A DNA stretch of 64,000 nucleotides, taken from a virus. Every line of letters begins with the position of its first letter. Position 1 is the first letter of the stretch. Below, in pieces: positions 7,216 through 36,184 of the stretch. Below the pieces are notes generated by a model. That model was given only the letters and a program-made list of their open reading frames with translations, made no database searches and had not been told where the DNA came from. Location of the stretch: IMG/VR virus record IMGVR_UViG_3300045988_135453; one strand, given 5' to 3'. Made by a program: the position numbers and the translations under genes.

Positions 7216-7722
7216 TTAATCTATATTGTTTTGGTGTAGCGAGGTTTGTTCTGAAAAGACTTTTAGCAAAGGTAAAATGCCGATGCCTTCCCAGTCTTTC
7301 CATTTGTCAGACGTAAAACGGGTGCATGTCGTCCGCTCGCTCATTCCGTTCTCTTTCATGAAAGAAGCGAATTTCTTGCAAAGGCCTTGACCCTGCTCCT
7401 TGAGCTTTGCATAAAAACGCCCGTTATCTTCGTCCGCCAGCGAAAGAGGGAAATCCTCGGGGGCGTTCTGCTCAGGATAATAAAAATCTTCAATTTTCCG
7501 CTTCACCTCTGGCGACGCTAAAAATTGCCTTTTACATTCCTTAACACCTATCAATTCCCAAGCTGAAAAACCTTTTTGAAAGAACCTCTTATAAAAGGTC
7601 GCAATTGAAAAGCCCTTGGGCATCAAAAAAAGCAACAGTGCTTTTTTCTCTTCTGCTGACACGTCTTTTATGTCAATAGGTGTCCGAGGACCCGTTATTT
7701 TTCTAAAAATTTCCTTGGTCAT
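7216..7722 (-). CDS. hypothetical protein
   Basis: 168-aa ORF, first gene of the minus-strand replication operon, divergent from the HTH gene. Confidence 0.7.
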   Translation of the reverse strand: MTKEIFRKITGPRTPIDIKDVSAEEKKALLLFLMPKGFSIATFYKRFFQKGFSAWELIGVKECKRQFLASPEVKRKIEDFYYPEQNAPEDFPLSLADEDNGRFYAKLKEQGQGLCKKFASFMKENGMSERTTCTRFTSDKWKDWEGIGILPLLKVFSEQTSLHQNNID

Positions 7723-10118: not shown

Positions 10119-10232
10119 GTGTTTTAATATATCTTGTTGGTTTCTGCATACAAAAGTAAAAAAAGTTGCTGACACAAACAGGACATATTAAAACACCGCC
10201 TACCCTTGGGAATGGGTAAGCGGTGTGAATTT

Positions 10233-11789
10233 TTATTGCTTTACGATCTTATATTTTAAGGTTATTGTCTTGCCGAATACCTTTGCCAAACATTTTTTAG
10301 TATGATTTAAAACGGCAACATCCGTGAAATGTGCTTCTATCATTTCCACTTGGGCCTTGCTCGTAGCACCAAGACATACTGTACCGTTCTCAAGCGATAT
10401 GTACCTAACCCTTCTCAAGTCAGAAGCAAGTTGTTTGTCAATTAAGTTTAAAAACATCTGCCATTCTTTTTCCCAAGGTTCCTCCTCAACTTCGGCAAAG
10501 TTAAACGTCTGCTGCCGTGGCTCGGGCTTCGCACTATGCTGCTTTATCCATTGCTCCATGATGTAAAACACGAACTCTTCCATCGTACCACTCCATCTAT
10601 GCGGCTGCTCCACTGCCTTGTGCACACCATTATAGGCATACGTCTTGAAGTCGTTCCAAAGGTCTTCAGGAACACCGGCAACAAACGTTTTGAGCCGTTC
10701 TTCGTCGAGTGTAGGATATAGCGACATCAGCTTGGCGCACAAACGCTTTTCTGACGAGCCACGATGCAGTTCCAGATCTCGCGCCACACCCAACGGCGTG
10801 CGCTTGATATGAAACTTTATCTTTTCCGGATTGCCTCGTTTTGCGCTGCCTCTATAAATAGGCTCGTAGCCTTTTTTGTCTGGGTCAACACACGAGAGCA
10901 TTATCTCTATCTTGTTTTCCTCGCACAGTCGTTCCATGTCACCACGCGCCACATCCAACACCTGTTTGCGGAACTGTGAGAATTTTTGATATTTCTCAGT
11001 AGTCACGACCTTTGCGGGTTGCGTATCGTCGCTTTTCTCAACGTCTACCTTAAACATACCCAACGCATCTTTCAACTCATGATAGTCTATAACCGGGTGC
11101 ATCTGCCCTTTGCTCGCATACTTCATCAACAGGAGGTAAAGACGTGACGTGTAAGCCGAGTTGCAGAAATAGGCTATTCGTTCAAGATGATTGAAATATC
11201 CGTCCGTCATATCAAACACGGCTTTTGCTACCTCGATGTTGATCGTCACCTCAATATATCCGTCACGTCTAAACTTGCGCACCTCCTGTCCGTCCTCGTC
11301 TAACTTTGTACCGCTATCCCCCGAATAGTTAAGGTCTTCTCCTTCTCGCGACGTGAAATTCTTAGGAATAAATATCTTACTGAAGATAGGCATGTAGTCC
11401 TCACCTTTTCTAAGTCCTGTTGCTGGATCAAAACGCGGAAGGTGAAACTCAATTTTCTTCATTTGGTTTATCACCTTCACCGACTCGTCATAATGACTAC
11501 TGTCTATACCAAAGTCAGCCAGACGCAAACGTATCGATCCCATCTTTAGCAGGTCTTCTTTCGTTATGCCTCCATTCGGACGTTCTTTGCTCAAATATCG
11601 GTGCTCATTCAAGAACTTGGCAAAATGGTCTTGCAGTCGTCCGCTTACCAACAACATAACATCCTGCTGTATGAGGGAATAGCTTTTAGCGTATGATGTA
11701 TAGTTGACGGGCGTGTTAATCCAGCGCAGCTCATTTAGGGCAAGTTGTAGTTGGTTTTCTCTATCTTCTTTTCTCGCTTTCTTTGCCAT
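10233..11789 (-). CDS. plasmid-type replication initiator (Rep_3-like)
   Basis: 518 aa. Contains segments typical of iteron-binding winged-helix initiators (YSLIQQDVMLLVSGRL, SAYTSRLYLLLMKY). The start codon abuts the iteron array. Confidence 0.65.
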   Translation of the reverse strand: MAKKARKEDRENQLQLALNELRWINTPVNYTSYAKSYSLIQQDVMLLVSGRLQDHFAKFLNEHRYLSKERPNGGITKEDLLKMGSIRLRLADFGIDSSHYDESVKVINQMKKIEFHLPRFDPATGLRKGEDYMPIFSKIFIPKNFTSREGEDLNYSGDSGTKLDEDGQEVRKFRRDGYIEVTINIEVAKAVFDMTDGYFNHLERIAYFCNSAYTSRLYLLLMKYASKGQMHPVIDYHELKDALGMFKVDVEKSDDTQPAKVVTTEKYQKFSQFRKQVLDVARGDMERLCEENKIEIMLSCVDPDKKGYEPIYRGSAKRGNPEKIKFHIKRTPLGVARDLELHRGSSEKRLCAKLMSLYPTLDEERLKTFVAGVPEDLWNDFKTYAYNGVHKAVEQPHRWSGTMEEFVFYIMEQWIKQHSAKPEPRQQTFNFAEVEEEPWEKEWQMFLNLIDKQLASDLRRVRYISLENGTVCLGATSKAQVEMIEAHFTDVAVLNHTKKCLAKVFGKTITLKYKIVKQ

Positions 11790-12133
11790 ACCTACGTTTT
11801 TATTTACTTAAACCTACGTTTTTATGTACCAAAACCTACGGATTTGTTTACCAACTCCTACGTTTTTGTCTACTTCGTATGCTCTAACTCGTTGGTTTTC
11901 AGCTTCTCAAAAAATCTTTAATATAATATAATTACAATCTATTATTTTATTCCGTTTTTAAAACAAAAAAAAATCCATATCTTATAATTATATTATATTA
12001 AGAGGTTTTAGAAGAATTGATTATCAGTTAGTTATCTACGGTGAAGTAAACAAAAACGTAGGAGTTGGTAAACAAATCCGTAGGTTTAAGTAAACAAATC
12101 CGTAGGAGTTGGTAAACAAATCCGTAGGTGTTG
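11790..12133. repeat. iteron cassette 1, candidate replication origin
   Basis: Four direct copies of (A)ACCTACG(T/G)(T/A)TTTNT(T)TAC at 11790..11860 and four inverted copies (GTAAACAAAWCCGTAGG) at 12046..12133, flanking an AT-rich core. Confidence 0.75.
11919..12000. repeat. 50-bp AT-rich core bounded by perfect 16-bp inverted repeats (copy 1)
   Basis: taatataatataatta at 11919..11934 and its exact reverse complement at 11985..12000. Confidence 0.85.
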
Positions 12134-12193
12134 TAAACCAAAACAGCACACTTTTGTAGTGACTTGGTAAAAACTTTATTAGGATTTTACATA

Positions 12194-12751
12194 TTACAAG
12201 TCCTCGTTGAGTATCGCCTCGCTTTTTTCAAAGTTATCCATATCGGTGTACATCAGACAAATAGAAACACCAGACCCGAAGCTGGGCGTTTTCAATGATT
12301 GAAGGATAAAACCAATGCTGTTGCCACCTGTTTCGTCAGGAATATTAAACGCCAGTCCAATAACATCGCCGTCTGGACCTCGGTTTTCCTCGGGCGTGGT
12401 GTTAGGATATTTCCGTTGCAAACTCTCGGTTAAGTTCAAGAAGGGGATATGAGCAGACTCTACAGTTGGATATTGCATTTCAACCGCAGCACTGAACACC
12501 ATTTTGCTTTTAGGATTATAAGCAACATTAATCGTAGCGTTCTCACCCATAAACGTGCCGTTAAAGACTCTACAGCCTTGCCCAGCTGCTTTCGACTTCG
12601 CTGCATCGTATGTCACGCCCTTAGCCTTCAGCTTCAAGGCAAAGTTGTCCACCGTTCCGTCTAATGGTATGCCCATAAACTTCATGTGCTGCTGTGCGCT
12701 TGCTGCCATACACAGGCAGAACGCGAACAATACTGATATTATCTTCTTCAT
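12194..12751 (-). CDS. secreted protein or lipoprotein (moron-like)
   Basis: Signal peptide MKKIISVLFAFCLCMAASAQQ. Lies between the two iteron cassettes. Confidence 0.75.
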   Translation of the reverse strand: MKKIISVLFAFCLCMAASAQQHMKFMGIPLDGTVDNFALKLKAKGVTYDAAKSKAAGQGCRVFNGTFMGENATINVAYNPKSKMVFSAAVEMQYPTVESAHIPFLNLTESLQRKYPNTTPEENRGPDGDVIGLAFNIPDETGGNSIGFILQSLKTPSFGSGVSICLMYTDMDNFEKSEAILNEDL

Positions 12752-12774
12752 AAGAAATTAGTCTATTACATTTG

Positions 12775-13032
12775 TTCCTATTTACGTTTTTATATGCCAA
12801 AACCTACGTTTTTGTTTACCAACTCCTACGTTTTTGTTTACTTCGTATGCTCTAACTCGTTGATTTTCAACTTCTCAAAAATTCCTTAACATAATATAAT
12901 TATAAGATATGAATTTTTTCGTTTTAAAAAGGAATAAAATAATAACTTATAATTATATCATATTAAGAGGTTTTGGAAGTGTTAATTATCAATTAGTTAT
13001 CTACAATGATGTAAACAAATCCGTAGGTGTTG
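12775..13032. repeat. iteron cassette 2, a shorter paralogue of cassette 1
   Basis: Three direct iterons (12775..12841) and one inverted iteron (13011..13032). Long stretches are near-identical to cassette 1 (ccaactcctacgtttttgt.tacttcgtatgctctaactcgttg; aaacagcacacttttgtagtgacttggtaaaaa). Confidence 0.75.
12887..12965. repeat. 47-bp AT-rich core bounded by 16-bp inverted repeats (copy 2), inverted relative to copy 1
   Basis: Arms are taacataatataatta and taattatatcatatta. The core taagatatgaattttttcgttttaaaaaggaataaaataataactta matches the reverse complement of core 1. Confidence 0.8.
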
Positions 13033-13091
13033 CAAACCCAAACAGCACACTTTTGTAGTGACTTGGTAAAAAGATTTAGTAGGATTTTACC

Positions 13092-13514
13092 TTACTTATT
13101 CCGCTCAACAAACTCATGTATTGCTTGCAAAGCGAGGTCCTTCAACGTGCGCCCAGTTTGAAATTTCATCATTGTCAACTGCATATAGTCCTCCATAGGC
13201 ACGTTTACGACGATGCCGTTCTCAGTCTTTTTCCCCTTTGTAGCAAATGAGGTGTCTGTCAGGGTTCTTCTATGATTACGCCCTTTGGCTGCTTGTGTCG
13301 AGGTGTTTTTGGCTCTATTCTCTGCTGCTTCACTCTCTTTATTATCGACTACTGCCTCATTCGTAGGCTCAGTTGTTGGTTTTCTTTCCGACTTGGCCAC
13401 AACAGCAGAAGATTCCTCTTGCTGTGTACTCTGTGTCAAAAGGGGTGCTTCGCTGTTGTCCCTTATATCGTCTGCCACTTTTTTTACTGGCGAATCGTTC
13501 CAATTAAATCCCAT
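13092..13514 (-). CDS. ParG/CopG-like ribbon-helix-helix partner of ParA (centromere-binding candidate)
   Basis: 140 aa. Disordered basic N-terminal part and a C-terminal segment IVVNVPMEDYMQL...LKDLALQAIHEFVERNK. Immediately downstream of parA. Confidence 0.5.
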   Translation of the reverse strand: MGFNWNDSPVKKVADDIRDNSEAPLLTQSTQQEESSAVVAKSERKPTTEPTNEAVVDNKESEAAENRAKNTSTQAAKGRNHRRTLTDTSFATKGKKTENGIVVNVPMEDYMQLTMMKFQTGRTLKDLALQAIHEFVERNK

Positions 13515-13526
13515 GGTTATCTCTTT

Positions 13527-14378
13527 TTATTGATTCTTGAATGTGTCAACTATTTCTTTTGCAAACGCCTCATAGCTCTGAGCTGCGTCACAGTCGGGAG
13601 CATAAGTGAAGATGTCCTGCATCATCGCCTGGGCTTCCACAATCTTTGTGCGACGCGGAATCTCTGTCTTGAACACATAACTGCCGTATTCCTCATCAAT
13701 ATGTTTCGAGAAGCCCACGCTTGCCTTTGTGCGCTTGTCAACCATCACCTTCAGCAGTCCGCGAAGTTCAAGGTTGGGGTTAATCTCGTTTCTCACTTCC
13801 TTTGCCCAGTGTATCACGCTTGACGAGCCAAATGTTGGCAGCGCTTCAAGCTGCATGGGGATGATGATGCCTGTTGCCACAGACATGGCGTTCTTGGTCA
13901 CGAGGTTCATGGCAGGAGGACAGTCGATGATGATATAGTCGAAGGCTTCTATTACACTCTGCTTGCCGCCTTTGTCTTCTGGGAGCACTACGGGTAATGC
14001 GAACAACTTACACAGCACTTTTAATGGGTTCAACTCACGCAGCAGAAACGGCTCCACGTTTAGCATGTCTTCAGATGAAGGAGCGATAAAAAGGTTGCCG
14101 TAATAGTCCTGCTTGTCAATGCTCACCTGGTACACAGGCATCGCAGTCTTGTCTACCAAGGCTTCGTACATTGTGCCGTGCTTGTCCTGACGATCACGCC
14201 AGCCGCACAGCAACGAAACGTTCGCAACCTGAGCATCGAGGTCTACAATAAGCACTCGCATGTCTGGGTTCAGCTTGATCAATCCGCAAGCCAAATTGTG
14301 GGCAGTTGTGCTCTTACCCACCCCGCCTTTGTCATTCACAATGGCGAGAACTTCTCTTAGTCTTTCCATAATTATCAA
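13527..14378 (-). CDS. parA: ParA-family partition ATPase
   Basis: Deviant Walker A IVNDKGGVGKSTTAHNLA and the typical ParA/Soj length and layout. Confidence 0.9.
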   Translation of the reverse strand: MIIMERLREVLAIVNDKGGVGKSTTAHNLACGLIKLNPDMRVLIVDLDAQVANVSLLCGWRDRQDKHGTMYEALVDKTAMPVYQVSIDKQDYYGNLFIAPSSEDMLNVEPFLLRELNPLKVLCKLFALPVVLPEDKGGKQSVIEAFDYIIIDCPPAMNLVTKNAMSVATGIIIPMQLEALPTFGSSSVIHWAKEVRNEINPNLELRGLLKVMVDKRTKASVGFSKHIDEEYGSYVFKTEIPRRTKIVEAQAMMQDIFTYAPDCDAAQSYEAFAKEIVDTFKNQ

Positions 14379-14419
14379 TATTAAAATGTTTTACGCTGCA
14401 AATTTAAGAATAATATTTA

Positions 14420-14660
14420 ACCTTACCAAATTTTTATCTACTTATTTATTTACCTATTTACTTACGCATTTATCTATCTACCTATTTACCTACTTACCTA
14501 AATATTTATCTAAGTATTTATCTAAATATCTAACAACCTATTTACATACATAAGTAAGTAAGTAAATATGTAAATAAAAGCCTATATAGTTATCTATGTA
14601 GATAAATAAATATATAGGTAAATAAATATATAAGTACGTTCGTAAATACTAACGTAAGTA
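14420..14660. promoter_or_regulatory. centromere-like (parC/parS-type) repeat field upstream of parA
   Basis: At least 8 plus-strand copies of TATTTA(C/T)NTA (14430..14550), then at least 5 copies of the complement (GRTAAATA) at 14555..14650. Includes an (AAGT)3 microsatellite at about 14553..14566. Confidence 0.6.
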
Positions 14661-14702
14661 CTAAAATACAGAAATATAAAAGTATTAAAGTATAAAAGTA
14701 TC

Positions 14703-30786: not shown

Positions 30787-32160
30787 CTAAATTCCCAGCT
30801 CAGCACATATCAGGTCACACGCCTCCTGCTTCGTGGTGTGATATTCGTCGAAGAACACCTTTGTGCTGTCATGTTTCACATGCAGCCGCTGGTGAAGCTC
30901 TGCCGTGCCGTTGACAACGAGACGGAAAAATTCAACTATCTCCTCGCTGCCCTCCGTCGAGTGACACAGCCGCTTCTGGCCATTCAACAGATGAATGTAT
31001 GTCAACCTTACCATGTAGCCCTCCTTACCCTCCTTGGCTTTCGCCTCCGACGGCTCGATGTTAAACTCCACAGGCACCACCACGCTGCCGTCTGCCAGGT
31101 CACGCAGCTTCACCTTGTCGCCTCTCTGTGTCGTCACGGTCATGCCGTGCTTGTTTACAAGTTTCATAAAGTTGTTCTCTATCATGTGTCTCAACCTCAC
31201 ACTGTCCGTCTTTAGCAGCATGCCACGGTAGCCTGCATAGTGTTTCCAGCCCGCCGACCTACCTCTTATGGCGCGTCGCCGCATCTCTGCACGCACATGC
31301 ACAAAGCTCTGCTTGTAGTCATACTTGCAGAAACGGAAGCCGTCGCCCACGCGACGCATCTGGTAATCGCCCTTCACTTTCAGCGAGAAGCGCCCCGCAT
31401 AGAAAGACATGAGAAAGCTCATCGCCTCTCTCACCTCCTTCTTCTCGCCACACATCAGTCTGTTGTCGCCAAAGCCAAACAGATCGACCTTGTAGCGGCG
31501 CAACACCTCGCGGTCGGCGATGACAAGCACAAACATGGCAAGCAGCTGACTGAGGCATCCCCCGATGGGCAGATATTCCATGTGTATGAACAGCCGCGCA
31601 AGCAGCCAGCGCGTGTATGGACACACCACCACCTTGAACAGCTCACCCAGCACGATGCGCGTCTGCAACGTCTCGTAGAAATGGCGAATGTCGGTCTGAC
31701 CCACCCACATGTCGGGATGACCTTTCACCCAGTGGCGTATCTTGTTCACCATGCAGTACCGTCGGTCGTTGCTCAGCAGCGAACGGCCCTTGATGCCCGA
31801 GTAGATGTTGCGGACCATCATGCCACGAAGCTTCTTCTCTATCATGATGAGCACCAGCGTCTGGACAATGCGGTCATACATCGCCGATACGTCGGCGTTC
31901 CTGTCCTTGTCGCCCTTGCCCTTCTTGTGTATGACCTTGCGCTTCGGCGGCTTCGGCGTGTAGGTCATGTCGCGCAGCTCGCGCTCAATCCTGTCACACA
32001 CCTTCTGTTTCTGTGCCGTCCACGCTTCAATCACGCTGTCGGGCGCATCCGTCCGGTCCATCGTGCGGTCAAACGCCTTCTCAATAATTGTTCTGTTCGC
32101 AAAGAAACGTCTGAGGCTTTTCAGTTTCCTCTTCTTGTTGGCTGACTTCAACTCTATCAT
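30787..32160 (-). CDS. DGR-type reverse transcriptase (conservative start; the ORF is open up to 32622)
   Basis: RT motifs TDIRHFYETL, LPIGGCLSQLLAMFVL (the I/LGxxxSQ hallmark of DGR RTs) and FGFGDNRLM at the YxDD position. The TR lies immediately upstream. Confidence 0.8.
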   Translation of the reverse strand: MIELKSANKKRKLKSLRRFFANRTIIEKAFDRTMDRTDAPDSVIEAWTAQKQKVCDRIERELRDMTYTPKPPKRKVIHKKGKGDKDRNADVSAMYDRIVQTLVLIMIEKKLRGMMVRNIYSGIKGRSLLSNDRRYCMVNKIRHWVKGHPDMWVGQTDIRHFYETLQTRIVLGELFKVVVCPYTRWLLARLFIHMEYLPIGGCLSQLLAMFVLVIADREVLRRYKVDLFGFGDNRLMCGEKKEVREAMSFLMSFYAGRFSLKVKGDYQMRRVGDGFRFCKYDYKQSFVHVRAEMRRRAIRGRSAGWKHYAGYRGMLLKTDSVRLRHMIENNFMKLVNKHGMTVTTQRGDKVKLRDLADGSVVVPVEFNIEPSEAKAKEGKEGYMVRLTYIHLLNGQKRLCHSTEGSEEIVEFFRLVVNGTAELHQRLHVKHDSTKVFFDEYHTTKQEACDLICAELGI

Positions 32161-32334
32161 AACGTCAGCGTCCTCAACGGTAGCCGACACGTTGCTTTCC
32201 GCGCTCCCGCAGCTGTCCCAGAAGGGCAGCTCCGAGCCGTAGTCGCATCGTCCATGCCCACCAGTGGCGACATGGCCATCTTTAGTCTTTGAGCTTGCTG
32301 CTCCCGATGTGAGAGGTCTCCCTTTTTCCGTGTT

Positions 32335-32447
32335 GACAGCGAACGCCCCAGCGTAGTTGTTGTTGCCATTGCCAGCGTGATTGTTACAGTTCGCAGTACG
32401 AGCCGAGACCTGGCCATTGTTCGCATTGCAACCAACCACAGAGCCGT
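32335..32447 (-). repeat. DGR template repeat (TR)
   Basis: 113 nt matching the VR at 101 of 113 positions. AAY-rich on the minus strand (NANNGQVSARTANCNNHAGNGNNNY). Confidence 0.85.
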
Positions 32448-32684
32448 TCTTCTCACCTTCGGTCTTGCATGTGTCGTCCGCGTGTGCGTTGTCGTGACTG
32501 GGATAGGTCGCGCACACACCTCTCGCCACATGCTCACACACCATGCCGACGTACCCGCGGCCCTTGCCGCGAGGCGCAGAGGCTGTCGCCTCCCCATGCA
32601 CGTTGTGGTTTTGTTTCTTCATGTTAAAACTCTTTTTTGATGTCGTCCTTCCGCGTCTTCAGCTTGAAAATCGGGGCGGGGGGG

Positions 32685-32716
32685 GGAGCGGCTACACTAA
32701 GACGTTTCGCCGCTCC
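32685..32716 (-). other. 8-bp GC hairpin next to a 9-nt homopolymer, between VR and TR
   Basis: ggagcggc (32685..32692) pairs with gccgctcc (32709..32716). A G9 run at 32678..32686 overlaps the stem by 2 nt (C9 on the coding strand). Confidence 0.5.
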
Positions 32717-32827
32717 GCTGGGCTTAAAGTCATGGCCTTCTTGCTTGGGCTCTCGCCGCAGCTTGCTAAGACGCAACTTGCGATTGAGACTTTTGTTAAT
32801 TATTATTGATTATTACTCTCGATTAAA

Positions 32828-35800
32828 TTATTGATTAAAAAGGACAGCGAACGCCCCAGCGTAGATGAAGTAGCCATTGCCAGCGAGATTGAAACATTTC
32901 GCAGAACGAGCCGAGACCTGGCCATCGTCCGCACTGCAACCAACCACAGAGCCGTGTACCTGAGACGTGTTCACTCCTCCATTATTTGACGGATATAACC
33001 ACAAATAGGCACATTCGTGCGTGTGGAGCGAAGAACCTACCGTCTTATAGCAGAAATACGACATGTTATAATCGGAAGACTTTATAAAACTCTCTTGCAA
33101 GTCCGTCGCGCCATAATCCTTCTTCTTGTTGAGTCCAACGAGCATTGGAGGCTTGGTGTCGTAAGCACATTGATAGGCATTCTGGTTGAATACCGTCAGC
33201 GGCTGCACATCTTCCATGCTCTCCGTGCAACGGTAGTCTACATGCGTGGCTCCATCAATGTTATGTATTGTGTAATAGGCGTAGCTCATCTGACGAAACT
33301 GCCCGACGTAAGGCAAGGTGAAACCGCGATACACGGGTATGCTTACCTTCAGAATGGCAATAGCCCCGTCAAATGACACCTTCTTGTCGGTGCTCTGACA
33401 ACCGTCGGCAATCTCTGTCTTGACATATCGGTTCACCACAGCGGTCATAACACCGTCCTTCATTCCTTCACAGCGAGGAACATCGCGCACGACAAAATAG
33501 AATTTTAGCATCTCCATGCCCTCGCCTGTGTCGAGGTTCACGCTGCCGTCGCTTGCACACACGGCGTTGCCGTTCTCGTCATAATAGAAAATGTTGGCTT
33601 TGTTGCCGATCTTGTCGATAAATCCTGCCTTGGCGATGGCATCAAGTATGCGTTGGCCTTCAAGCAGCTGCACAGGATTGTATAAGGCTGTTGACAAGCC
33701 GTTCGCAAGCCGAATGTTCTTGTTCTTGCTTACGACATAGGCCTGTGAACTTAAATAATGGTTATAGTAGGTCTCGCCTGTAGCAGCAATGATCTTCCAG
33801 CCGCTCACACCACTTATCGCATCGTCGTTAAACTGGCTCGCGCTTATGTTTTGCGCTGTCACGCCCGAGCCAAACATCTTCACGTCTGTGTGGTCAACCG
33901 AGCCTATCTCCGCAAACATGGTGGTCAGAAGAGCCTCGTAGGTGCCATGGTGCCAGCCCATGTAAGGACGGGCGGTCAACGGATCTGTATTCTTGTTCTG
34001 TGCGTTCTGTATGCTTGACACAGCACTTATGTTTGAAGCGTGTCCCGCCCCTCTGTTTATGTAAGATGCTTTCAGCACAGACGTGTCGGCCGTGCCGTAC
34101 ATTCCGTTCACCGCCGTGTTGTATATGCAATGTGCCTGAGACCTTGTGTCGCCCTCGATCTTCGCGTTCACGGTCTCGCAAGGTGTCATGCCGAACGCAG
34201 GCATCTTTTTTGATTCCACACCGTACCATTTTGCCGCCGTCTTGCCGATAGCCAGACAGTTCATCTCGCGTCCGTCAACAACCTTCGTCGCGTTGATCAC
34301 GTTGGCGTTGCGGTTTATGAGCATTACGTCGCCGTCAGTGCCGTCAATCTTCACCTCCTCGCCGTTCTCGTCGAGGGTCAGACGGCCAGGGGCCATGACG
34401 TGTGTCACCACACCGTTCTTCACTGTCGCCAGCTTCCACTCGGCTCCCACCTCGCGCATCAACTGCTTGTCTCCAAACGTCATCTCCGCGTCAGGACTCG
34501 CGTCACCGTTCATCCTCACCATGCCCACATAGGGGTTGGTGTCAACAAATGTCGCCATCTTCTCCTTCAGCTCAACGGCGAGGCTTCGTGTCTCATTCTC
34601 CTTCTGACTCAGGTTGCCGAGCTGGGTGGAGATAGAAGCGAACACACCGTCACGCAGCACCTTCATCGTCAGGTCTGCCGTGCCTACCTTGTAGCTCACG
34701 GCGACGGTCATGGAGGCGTTGCCCTGGAAATGGCTCATGAAGCGGCAATAGCCGTCTTCGGGCAGCTCGGCTTCAGCGTTAAGGCGCACAAGCGGGGCGT
34801 AGGAACCTACGGTGGTCTTATATTGATAAGGCAGCTCTGTCACCACAGCTCCGCTCTCGTCGGTAATGGTCACGCTCTTCGTGCCGTCCTCGCCGTCGGC
34901 ATAGGCATAGCTGTAGGTATGTGTCTTGCCGAGGTAGGTGGCGGTTGCGCTCGCTGTTGTTCCGTCCTCGTTGTAGCTGTAGGTGTAGTCGATGCTTCGT
35001 GTCTCCACTCTGCTTATCTTCTCTGCAAAGATGCACACCGTGCCGTCCACGACGTTGGGCTTGAACAGATATTCGTTGCCCTTCTCTGCCGTAAACTCGG
35101 CGATGGTCCAACCTGTCTTTGCCACCTTCACACCGTCGGCGCTTATAGCCACGTTCTGTTCCGAGGGAGTGAGCACAATGTCGGGACGCGCCGTGTAATG
35201 GCCCAGGCTCTCCTTTACACGCTCCATCGAGGCAGCAAGCTCTTTCACCTTCTCTCCCTCGCCTATGTTTATAGAGGCTTCATGTCCCTCTCTGTCGGTT
35301 ATCGTCAGTGTGCCGTCTTCGGCAAGCGTGGCGTTCACGTTGTTCGCGGCTGTTGCGCTCTGTTCTGCCTTAGACGCTGCTGTCTGTGCCGATTCCGCAG
35401 CGTCTAAGGCGGCCTTCGTGGCGGTCTTCACCTCGTCGAGGGCCTTCGTGGTCTTCTCCGCACGGCCCTGTTCTGCCTTGTCGCGCAGCTTCTCGGCTGT
35501 AACGCGCCGTGCTTCGGCATCGGCACGAAGTTCCTCGGCACTCTTGCGCTCTGTCTCGTCTGTGCTCCGTGTGCTCTCTGCCTCCGTGCGCTGTGTCTCA
35601 GCTGTCGCGCGACCCTGCTCCGCCTCGCTTCGCACCATCTCGGCCATTATGCGCTTCTTCTCAGCAGCTGTTGCCGTGGCATTGAACTCGTTGAAGGCCG
35701 TGGCGGTCTTCTCCAACGCCGCGAGGTTGTCATCCATGAGCTTATTCATAGCCTCACCATGCTCGGCTGCGGTCTGTGCGCGTGCGGCAGCTGACATTGC

Positions 35801-36184
35801 GCTCTCCGCGCTTCCATTGGCGTTGCTCGTCGCCTCCGTCACCTTGCCGAGGGCGTTGTTCAGCTTGTCGCTCGCTGTGTTGGCTCTCGTTGCCGACTGT
35901 TCGGCTGCAAGGGCCTTGGTGTTGGCGTTGTCCGCAGCTGTCGTGGCGGTCTGTGCGGCAGTCCGCGCGTCCTCGGCTGCCGTGTAAGCAGCCTGTCCGT
36001 CAACAAGGATGCCCCACCATTCATCTTCACCCGCAGGCTCATGTCCCGTGTTTCCCTCCTGCTTGCTCCAGTAGGTGGTGTTCTTATACGTTACCACATG
36101 CAGCCTGCCGTAAGTGACATCGGGCGAGTATGCGCCCTTTGGCGCAAAGCCTACTCTTCCTAAATTAATTTTCTTTGTTACCAT
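32828..36184 (-). CDS. tail-fibre-like protein, DGR target
   Basis: 1118 aa. Long Ala-rich coiled coil at aa ~65-290. The VR encodes the last ~40 aa (GSVVGCSADDGQVSARSAKCFNLAGNGYFIYAGAFAV). Confidence 0.85.
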   Translation of the reverse strand: MVTKKINLGRVGFAPKGAYSPDVTYGRLHVVTYKNTTYWSKQEGNTGHEPAGEDEWWGILVDGQAAYTAAEDARTAAQTATTAADNANTKALAAEQSATRANTASDKLNNALGKVTEATSNANGSAESAMSAAARAQTAAEHGEAMNKLMDDNLAALEKTATAFNEFNATATAAEKKRIMAEMVRSEAEQGRATAETQRTEAESTRSTDETERKSAEELRADAEARRVTAEKLRDKAEQGRAEKTTKALDEVKTATKAALDAAESAQTAASKAEQSATAANNVNATLAEDGTLTITDREGHEASINIGEGEKVKELAASMERVKESLGHYTARPDIVLTPSEQNVAISADGVKVAKTGWTIAEFTAEKGNEYLFKPNVVDGTVCIFAEKISRVETRSIDYTYSYNEDGTTASATATYLGKTHTYSYAYADGEDGTKSVTITDESGAVVTELPYQYKTTVGSYAPLVRLNAEAELPEDGYCRFMSHFQGNASMTVAVSYKVGTADLTMKVLRDGVFASISTQLGNLSQKENETRSLAVELKEKMATFVDTNPYVGMVRMNGDASPDAEMTFGDKQLMREVGAEWKLATVKNGVVTHVMAPGRLTLDENGEEVKIDGTDGDVMLINRNANVINATKVVDGREMNCLAIGKTAAKWYGVESKKMPAFGMTPCETVNAKIEGDTRSQAHCIYNTAVNGMYGTADTSVLKASYINRGAGHASNISAVSSIQNAQNKNTDPLTARPYMGWHHGTYEALLTTMFAEIGSVDHTDVKMFGSGVTAQNISASQFNDDAISGVSGWKIIAATGETYYNHYLSSQAYVVSKNKNIRLANGLSTALYNPVQLLEGQRILDAIAKAGFIDKIGNKANIFYYDENGNAVCASDGSVNLDTGEGMEMLKFYFVVRDVPRCEGMKDGVMTAVVNRYVKTEIADGCQSTDKKVSFDGAIAILKVSIPVYRGFTLPYVGQFRQMSYAYYTIHNIDGATHVDYRCTESMEDVQPLTVFNQNAYQCAYDTKPPMLVGLNKKKDYGATDLQESFIKSSDYNMSYFCYKTVGSSLHTHECAYLWLYPSNNGGVNTSQVHGSVVGCSADDGQVSARSAKCFNLAGNGYFIYAGAFAVLFNQ
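32843..32955 (-). repeat. DGR variable repeat (VR)
   Basis: Differs from the TR at 12 positions. Eleven correspond to TR adenines on the minus strand. Confidence 0.85.

Follow-up and report, generated by a model that had tools for sequence, protein, structure and literature searches.

The interval at positions 11790 to 13091 of a 64,000-nucleotide stretch of viral DNA (IMG/VR record IMGVR_UViG_3300045988_135453; we refer to this whole stretch as the window) carries two related iteron cassettes, located between the initiator gene rep (10233 to 11789, minus strand) and a small open reading frame (ORF) followed by parA (13092 to 13514 and 13527 to 14378, both minus strand). The element is best described, from its gene content, as a phage-plasmid of gut Prevotella/Segatella of roughly 100 kb. 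The best overall explanation of the interval, which we consider likely, is that cassette 1 represents a symmetric iteron origin and cassette 2 a decayed copy of such an origin, captured once, whose core has become inverted, probably by template switching.

The iteron consensus CCTACGTTTTTGTTTAC, allowing up to 3 mismatches, matched 11 times in the 64 kb, always within the two cassettes, with 0.09 matches expected by chance. Cassette 1 has four iterons on the plus strand (11791, 11813, 11835, and 11857) and four on the minus strand (12046, 12068, 12090, and 12112), spaced by exactly 22 bp in both arrays, and between them follow a 45-nt spacer, a 16-nt arm, a 50-nt core, a second 16-nt arm, and a second 45-nt spacer (Table 1). 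Cassette 2 (12780 to 13091) is built to the same plan in reduced form, with two to three plus-strand iterons on one side (a degenerate one at 12780 and good ones at 12803 and 12825) and one minus-strand iteron on the other (13011). It has lost 1 + 3 iterons and shows point changes in both arms; these arm substitutions occur across the clade that carries cassette 2, and the window copy has substitutions in the right dyad box as well. The outer stretches of the two cassettes are direct repeats of 79 to 97% identity, with the 62-nt tail repeat of cassette 2 (13011 to 13072) being 97% identical to 12112 to 12173. Self-complementarity of cassette 2 is 71% over 116-nt arms. Each cassette is a large imperfect palindrome with mirror-oriented iteron arrays, a property that an earlier, sequence-only reading of this DNA had not mentioned. 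That reading had recognized origin-like iteron cassettes between the Rep gene and the partition genes, with near-identical outer stretches in the same orientation, and both points agree with our results. So do its arms: those of copy 1 (11919 to 11934 and 11985 to 12000) are indeed exact complements (16/16), and those of copy 2 lie where it had put them, at 12887 to 12902 and 12950 to 12965, with 14 of 16 positions pairing. In single-stranded DNA fold predictions, the arms of cassette 1 form a 17-bp stem (z = -3.9), and the arm hairpins were significant (z from -3.9 to -5.2).

We then compared the two cores. They agree at 35 of 50 positions in the forward alignment and at 42 of 50 when one core is reversed, and each core matches its own reverse complement at 34 to 36 of ~50 positions. 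Since the core is itself nearly palindromic, the evidence for a flip within the window is modest: of the orientation-informative columns in cassette 2, 13 agree with the reversed copy and 4 to 5 with the forward copy (P = 0.05 to 0.10), which is suggestive and not decisive. The sequence-only reading was right that the cores are better matched in opposite orientation, although its statement that core 2 does not match core 1 itself went too far. It had also named the case in which the cores would simply be palindromic and equally similar both ways; near-palindromic they are, but the two similarities are unequal. The self-matches, the forward alignment, and the P value reached by the column test would all suit a diverged palindrome that never inverted in the window and that fits better in reverse by chance. 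We regard such a chance fit as very improbable. Reversed identity (84%) equals the level of the flanks (~85%), whereas forward identity (70%) equals the palindrome background; diagnostic contiguous blocks (GGAATAAAATAATA versus TATTATTTTATTCC and AAGATATGGATTTTT versus AAAAATCCATATCTT) match solely in reverse; each of the 7 distinct cassette-2 sequences shows the reverse match with every primary cassette (that adjoining rep) of the clade; and the homologous segment is unambiguously inverted in one relative, L060.

Relatives of the element were obtained by Rep searches (40 IMG/VR loci, 44 metagenome loci, and 2 genome loci), and look-ups of close Rep variants gave 11 further loci; loci are given L numbers here. 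The ~3.5 kb surrounding the origin are essentially the same in L060 (ERZ1026876, a 93.5-kb contig at 35x coverage) and L061 (ERZ1026780), with the exception of the cassette center. There, positions 7535 to 7641 of L060 are the exact reverse complement, over 107 nt, of positions 7526 to 7632 of L061. The minimal replaced block, L060 7540 to 7637, is the reverse complement of L061 7530 to 7627, with an offset of 10 nt between source and target; the right outer arm has changed from TTTTGACACATTG to TTTTGTGTAGTTG, the reverse complement of the left arm; and the junctions show microhomologies of 4 to 5 nt (CAAAA and TTGA). Informative columns favor inversion by 25 to 0 (P = 6e-8). Since the outgroup L062 carries the L061 state, L060 is the derived form. 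The inversion in L060 is an independent and unambiguous flip of a primary origin, and it shows spacer inversion combined with arm homogenization, the published hallmark of a template switch at imperfect inverted repeats (PMC8604942). It was not a reciprocal crossover, because a crossover inverts in place and would not copy one arm onto the other. The flipped primary origin is the majority form in the L060 sample, and its assembly at 35x coverage indicates that an origin in this state is viable. We do not attribute the L060 sequence to misassembly, as the perfect arm stretches (13 to 16 nt) should be shorter than assembler k-mers and arm conversion should create k-mers absent from an L061-like molecule. 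Another relative with an L061-like origin, L090 (~1709 to 1866 in window orientation), has a 7-nt deletion in the right AT arm (..CCATATTTTATTATATTAAG), indicating that slippage occurs in the arms too.

Complete relatives with the Rep/iteron specificity of the window (type A) have a single cassette beside rep, typically with 4 + 4 iterons. The orientation of the primary core is that of cassette 1 in ~45 distinct sequences, L060 being the one exception, and no flips were found among 15 distinct origins of relatives with a second specificity (type B). The close-Rep-variant look-ups yielded no additional flipped primary cassette, many of the short contigs among them ending in the origin. Cassette 2 was found only in the clade of the window (Rep 97 to 99% identical), comprising the window itself, L001/L043, L027/L049, L070, L071, L094, and L098, and it is flipped in all 9 loci that carry it (7 distinct sequences). 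This restriction to one clade, together with the invariable flip, points to one inversion event that became fixed. Contigs L089, L091, L095, L097, and L099 stop within or just before iteron arrays. Since many short-read contigs stop at these arrays, the palindromic origin appears to be a recurrent assembly break point, and orientation censuses based on short contigs are therefore biased.

Could the core be a programmed invertible element, in which a recombinase of the host or of an unseen part of the phage switches origin firing or the expression of rep or of gene X, the signal-peptide gene between the cassettes? Such an element would fit a segment flanked by inverted repeats (IRs) in a gut Bacteroidota element, two independent inversions in the family, and the different orientations of the near-identical L060 and L061. 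We find this hardly credible, however, since the orientations behave as fixed (1 of ~45 distinct primary cassettes and every cassette 2 being flipped) and since the L060 event, with its 10-nt offset and arm conversion, was nonreciprocal, an outcome that conservative site-specific recombination does not yield. Moreover, a distance of 47 to 50 bp between sites is very short for recombinase synapsis. The 72 ORFs of the window contain no integrase, resolvase, or invertase domain (no Phage_integrase, Resolvase, or Recombinase match at E ≤ 1e-4), and L060 is viable with a flipped core. A scan of 11760 to 13140 for the Bacteroidetes TTTG / TAnnTTTG promoter found none in the cores, its sole site lying inside gene X (12229 to 12236), although weak promoters may escape such a consensus scan. 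Of the two mechanisms that the sequence-only reading had offered, template switching thus gains from the comparison of L060 with L061, whereas the invertible element is disfavored by the fixed orientations and by the lack of a recombinase domain in the window and of a promoter consensus in the cores.

Cassette 2 could also owe its inverted core to a reciprocal exchange between the arms with their imperfect extensions, with or without RecA and in the absence of template switching. The arms with extensions reach ~33 nt with 2 to 3 mismatches in some relatives (by eye, in L010), and the cassette-2 breakpoints are symmetric, inside the arms, with the outer flanks keeping the sequence of their own side. 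Against this, the only event whose breakpoints can be resolved, that of L060, was nonreciprocal, and 16 perfect AT base pairs are below the usual minimum for efficient RecA recombination; we consider a reciprocal origin of the cassette-2 flip unlikely, though less so than a programmed element. We therefore favor, for cassette 2 as well, a spacer inversion between the inverted arms, most likely by polymerase template switching on the near-palindrome, the origin core being presumably single stranded at every initiation. Since the core and its surroundings are nearly palindromic, a flip changes only ~15 to 20 bases and keeps the T-rich-left/A-rich-right layout, and it is thus probably close to neutral. 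Spacer inversion in this family is real, recurrent but rare, and probably near-neutral. A true flip-flop, with the arms exposed as hairpins at each initiation, strand switching there that would invert the core at a measurable rate, both orientations in every population, and cassette 2 and the orphan iterons described below perhaps coupling or excluding co-resident types, strikes us as quite improbable.

Several observations weigh against this interpretation. The hallmarks of L060 (offset, arm homogenization, and junction microhomology) are not visible in cassette 2 of the window, and since this copy shows no asymmetric breakpoint, the mechanism of its flip is deduced from another genome. The flip in the window itself depends on the 13 versus 4 to 5 informative columns mentioned above. 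Metagenome assemblies show the majority orientation only, so that minority flipped molecules may be present, and the fact that ~45 distinct sequences keep the primary core in one orientation may indicate a role for orientation, contrary to neutrality. The recombinase scan covered the 64-kb window, and ~36 to 40 kb of the genome lie outside it. Finally, the GC skew of the window does not inflect at the cassettes; since almost all window genes point one way, however, the skew is uninformative.

The source of cassette 2 is suggested by its left border. Homologues of gene X occupy the same position, between the origin tail and a parB-like gene, in many relatives without cassette 2, and in these relatives the stop codon of the parB-like gene lies within ~25 nt of the gene X start. 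In the window, a remnant of the 3' end of this gene, TTACATTTGTTCCTAT, runs directly into the degenerate first iteron of cassette 2. By this comparison, the event that introduced cassette 2 would have its left junction at 12766 to 12781. Cassette 2 is ~85 to 88% identical to cassette 1 of its own clade and no closer to any other sampled lineage. Since it adjoins the parB-like remnant, illegitimate recombination with a related replicon is the most likely source, rather than duplication in place. In-place tandem duplication was rejected because it predicts a second gene X copy and leaves the parB remnant unexplained. The two cassettes, which the sequence-only reading had called paralogous, are therefore related origin copies, but most likely not the products of a simple duplication in place. 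We propose a single capture of cassette 2 in the common ancestor of the clade, for which illegitimate recombination involving a related replicon in the same host is the probable route. This event would have joined the 3' end of the parB-like gene of a rep-origin-gene X-parB replicon to the second iteron of the incoming origin, and the incoming replicon would have brought its own partition module. The loss of three right-hand iterons and the inversion of the core could have occurred after the join or already in the donor.

Partition modules are shuffled relative to rep in this family. ParA of the window is 98% identical to those of L005 and of L034, which has a type-B Rep, but only 44% identical to that of L001, although the Rep of L001 is 98% identical to that of the window. 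Judged from these identities, partition modules are freely exchanged between the Rep/iteron specificity types. Upstream of parA, an AT-rich stretch (GC content of ~0.2) at 14420 to 14700 contains about nine TATTTACCTA-type repeats with a 12-nt period, after which come inverted TAGGTAAATA copies, and is a candidate partition centromere.

The sequence-only reading had further suggested that recombination between the direct repeats could delete the secreted-protein gene. L096 (Rep 97% identical) corresponds to L094 minus gene X and cassette 2, with the blocks overlapping by ~80 nt in the tail repeat. Its tail is cassette-1-like at two diagnostic sites and cassette-2-like afterwards, matching the expected leftover of a crossover in the 62-nt, 97%-identical tail repeat. 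Deletion of gene X together with cassette 2 in L096 is thus plausible, although an ancestral single-cassette state would look alike; L096 is compatible with the suggested deletion and fits the ancestral state equally well. The gene X slot is variable among relatives, being empty or occupied by a single gene (51 to 99% identical) or by two tandem paralogues, as in L048 (7967 to 9126, window orientation), and gene X units each end in ..TAGGATTTTAC, as if inserted cassette-wise.

Whether cassette 2 still works is a separate question, the answer to which can coexist with the explanation of the flip given above. It might serve as an incA/incC-like cluster that titrates or handcuffs Rep and reduces copy number, as a second origin, or as a Rep-controlled regulator of gene X. 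It retains two perfect iterons and one opposite iteron, both arms, the core, and the conserved tail; it is nearly unchanged in 7 distinct clade genomes; and secondary iteron clusters are normal in this Rep family, as they are in P1, F, and R6K. Yet no other lineage has it, not even L096, only 4 of the 8 iterons are left, and substitutions have accumulated in its arms across the clade and in the right dyad box of the window copy. A working role is therefore possible but, in our view, doubtful, and we infer that the copy is a relic in decay or else a site that titrates Rep.

The product of the adjacent rep gene scored E = 0.0015 (19.4 bits, under the family cutoff of 22.4) against Pfam Rep3_N and 1.8e-6 against NCBIfam RepM. 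A single-sequence PDB search with Rep returned nothing, and only the family profile and a fold search succeeded: the Rep family profile matches PDB entry 2NRA (pi protein) at 4.4e-6, and the AlphaFold model (pLDDT of 78) matches 2NRA pi and 1REP RepE54 with a probability of 1.0 and a target TM-score of 0.65 to 0.71. The nearest annotated homologues, 30% identical, are encoded on plasmids of Segatella copri and S. hominis and belong to the RepB family (PGAP name "RepB family"), and homologues at 43 to 45% identity carry PF01051 and PF21205. We infer that cassette 1 is the plasmid-mode replication origin; its iterons are presumably bound by the adjacent pi/RepE-like Rep, and its core is the presumed unwinding element. 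Since rep adjoins the iterons, bound Rep would also cover the leader and promoter region of its own gene; no promoter for rep emerged within the cassette from the scan with the Bacteroidetes consensus. The C-terminal ~80 residues of Rep (10233 to 10500) resemble, in the model, DnaA domain I and the DciA domain DUF721 (4TPS, 7YKM, 2E0G, and 8A3V; probability of 0.98 to 1.0 and target TM-score of 0.36 to 0.63). This module, which may be a helicase-recruiting domain, lies in the half that is almost identical between type-A and type-B Reps.

Type-B Reps share ~40% identity with that of the window over the N-terminal half, and the C-terminal halves are nearly identical. Their origins have the same layout with another, 18-nt iteron, GTCACTACAAAAGTGTGC, in mirror-oriented arrays of up to 4 per side, and their spacer boxes (CTAACTCATTGATTTTC on the left and GCTGATTATCAG on the right) are the same as in type A. 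Each type also carries iterons of the other. Type-A origins contain one perfect type-B iteron ~35 bp past the last A iteron (at 12146 to 12163 in the window, a position at which it is present in nearly all type-A relatives), and type-B origins carry an inverted pair of type-A iterons at the right edge (L034 7840 to 7893, window orientation). The only Rep encoded in the window is of type A. These orphan iterons could be recombination scars or sites of cross-regulation between co-resident replicons.

In cultured S. copri plasmids, including that of DSM 18205, 22-bp-phased iterons likewise lie in opposed orientation around AT-rich centers. The DSM 18205 plasmid (L088, NZ_CP085934; 3130 to 3470 and 4828 to 5590) has three opposed clusters, one upstream and two downstream of rep, with iterons of the form GGTAAAC..GTGGTTT and the same parA-ORF-origin-rep synteny as the window. 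Going by these sequences, opposed iteron arrays around an AT-rich center are a family trait, of which the strict symmetric 4 + 4 form is found in the phage-plasmids, and several iteron cassettes per replicon are not unusual in the Rep family.

The phage-plasmid label follows from the presence of virion and lysis genes of phage type alongside replication and partition genes of plasmid type, with no integrase match. The window encodes tail-fiber and virion PHROG families, a lysozyme, ParA, and a diversity-generating retroelement (DGR), and none of its 72 ORFs matched an integrase; the label was judged on these 64 kb of the genome. Relatives occur on contigs of up to 94 to 105 kb from human-gut metagenomes, and two of them lie in Prevotella metagenome-assembled genomes. 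Megablast of 10200 to 14400 against GenBank phages and PLSDB plasmids gave no match, nor did tblastn of Rep against phages, and in the literature we found neither the replicon family nor such an origin design described. A paper on a crAssphage phage-plasmid was considered as a related system and set aside, as it concerns RepL. Replicon types of the family co-occur in single metagenome samples; type-A and type-B phage-plasmids share samples in the pairs L069/L074, L070/L079, L050/L083, L044/L078, L061/L076, and L059/L080, sometimes at similar coverage (117x versus 102x). The DGR of the window spans 30787 to 36184. Its template repeat (TR; 32335 to 32447, 113 nt) lies near the 5' part of the reverse-transcriptase ORF and is 89% identical to the 3' end of an 1118-amino-acid virion or tail-like ORF (VR; 32843 to 32955), the TR/VR differences falling nearly all at template adenines.

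Table 1. Features of the cassette interval and adjoining genes, in window positions
Feature	Position	Strand	Description
rep	10233..11789	-	518-aa initiator; N-terminal ~320 aa with predicted pi/RepE WH1-WH2 fold; extra C-terminal domain
Cassette 1 left array	11791..11873	+	4 iterons, 22-bp spacing; adjoins rep start codon
Left spacer	11874..11918		Conserved CTCTAACTCGTTG(G/A)TTTTCA box, TTGA-N3-TCAA-type dyad; kept in type-A and type-B relatives
Cassette 1 left arm	11919..11934	+	16 nt, AT-only; 16/16 complementary to 11985-12000
Cassette 1 core	11935..11984		50 nt, GC ~0.15, near-palindromic, family-typical orientation
Cassette 1 right arm	11985..12000	-	Complement of left arm, 16/16
Right spacer	12001..12045		Conserved TTGATTATCAG dyad box at 12017-12027
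Cassette 1 right array	12046..12128	-	4 iterons, mirror orientation, 22-bp spacing
Orphan type-B iteron	12146..12163	-	GTCACTACAAAAGTGTGC, 18/18; in conserved "tail"
Gene X	12194..12751	-	185-aa protein, N-terminal signal peptide, no family match; variable accessory slot
parB-like 3'-end remnant	12766..12781	-	16 nt, TTACATTTGTTCCTAT; by-eye comparison with L010, L013, and L022
Cassette 2 left array	12780..12841	+	One degenerate and two perfect iterons
Cassette 2 left arm	12887..12902	+	14/16 complementary to 12950-12965
Cassette 2 core	12903..12949		47 nt; apparently inverted relative to cassette 1 and family consensus
Cassette 2 right arm	12950..12965	-	14/16 complementary to 12887-12902
Cassette 2 right iteron	13011..13027	-	Sole remaining; three of four lost
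Second orphan type-B iteron	13045..13062	-	18/18; within tail repeat 13011-13072
140-aa protein	13092..13514	-	Position of ParA's centromere-binding partner; no family match; homologue follows origin in all relatives
parA	13527..14378	-	Partition ATPase; Pfam AAA_31 3.5e-34, CbiA; NCBIfam ParA

Taken together, these data would define the origin of an abundant, uncultured family of human-gut Prevotella/Segatella phage-plasmids (~100 kb), an origin that is two-fold symmetric and comes in at least two Rep/iteron specificity types. L060 offers a clean natural case of template switching that inverts and homogenizes a near-palindrome inside a replication origin. Such homogenization would explain why origins of this kind stay palindromic and why assemblies break or differ there. 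It also serves as a warning that an inverted IR-flanked segment in gut Bacteroidota need not be a phase-variation switch. Because plasmids of the cultured S. copri DSM 18205 carry homologous cassettes, this origin architecture is open to experiment. Each ingredient is of a known kind, be it the iteron-based origin, the secondary cluster of iterons, or the template-switch inversion at a quasi-palindrome; they come together in an undescribed, unusually symmetric origin of an abundant gut phage-plasmid family.

Among known systems, the R6K gamma ori, mini-F ori2, pPS10, and pSC101 (pi/RepE/RepA-type, Rep_3) likewise combine a WH1-WH2 initiator with phased iterons (22 bp here) by an AT-rich region and with a rep gene adjoining the iterons. 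These classical origins have one direct array on one side, whereas here two arrays of four mirror each other and the whole ~350-bp origin is an imperfect palindrome; Rep also has ~200 extra C-terminal residues and scores under the Pfam Rep3_N threshold. Secondary iteron loci such as cassette 2, which lies ~1 kb from the primary origin and repeats its iterons, are also known as P1 incA, F incC, R6K alpha/beta, P4 crr, and the extra iterons of RK2. Cassette 2 differs from these in being a truncated copy of a whole origin, arms and core included, which is clade-specific and probably a recombination by-product, any control role being hypothetical. Initiator sites mirrored around an AT-rich center are known from archaeal oriC (inverted ORB elements), HSV oriS, and the SV40 core origin, whose initiators are unrelated to Rep. 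In parvovirus flip/flop, the interior of a palindromic origin exists in two orientations at an obligatory 50:50 ratio resulting from hairpin transfer at linear ends, whereas one orientation dominates in the Prevotella phage-plasmid origin. Gut Bacteroidales invertons likewise present a short IR-flanked segment in two orientations in mobile elements of gut Bacteroidota, but here neither a recombinase gene nor a promoter consensus was found in the window and cores, respectively, the orientation is fixed nearly everywhere, and the resolvable event was nonreciprocal; the AT-only arms are also unlike known recombinase sites. A further parallel is offered by template-switch mutations at quasi-palindromes, to which the minute hairpin-loop inversions of chloroplast DNA are related. 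In such mutations (Ripley model; Abraham & Hazkani-Covo 2021, PMC8604942), a spacer is likewise exchanged for its exact reverse complement, the sequence of one arm overwrites that of the other, the junctions show microhomology, and the event is, as here, recurrent and in principle reversible. Compared with the yeast cases (PMC8604942), the spacer here is far longer (50 to 98 nt against 2 to 5 nt) and lies in the presumed unwinding core of an origin.

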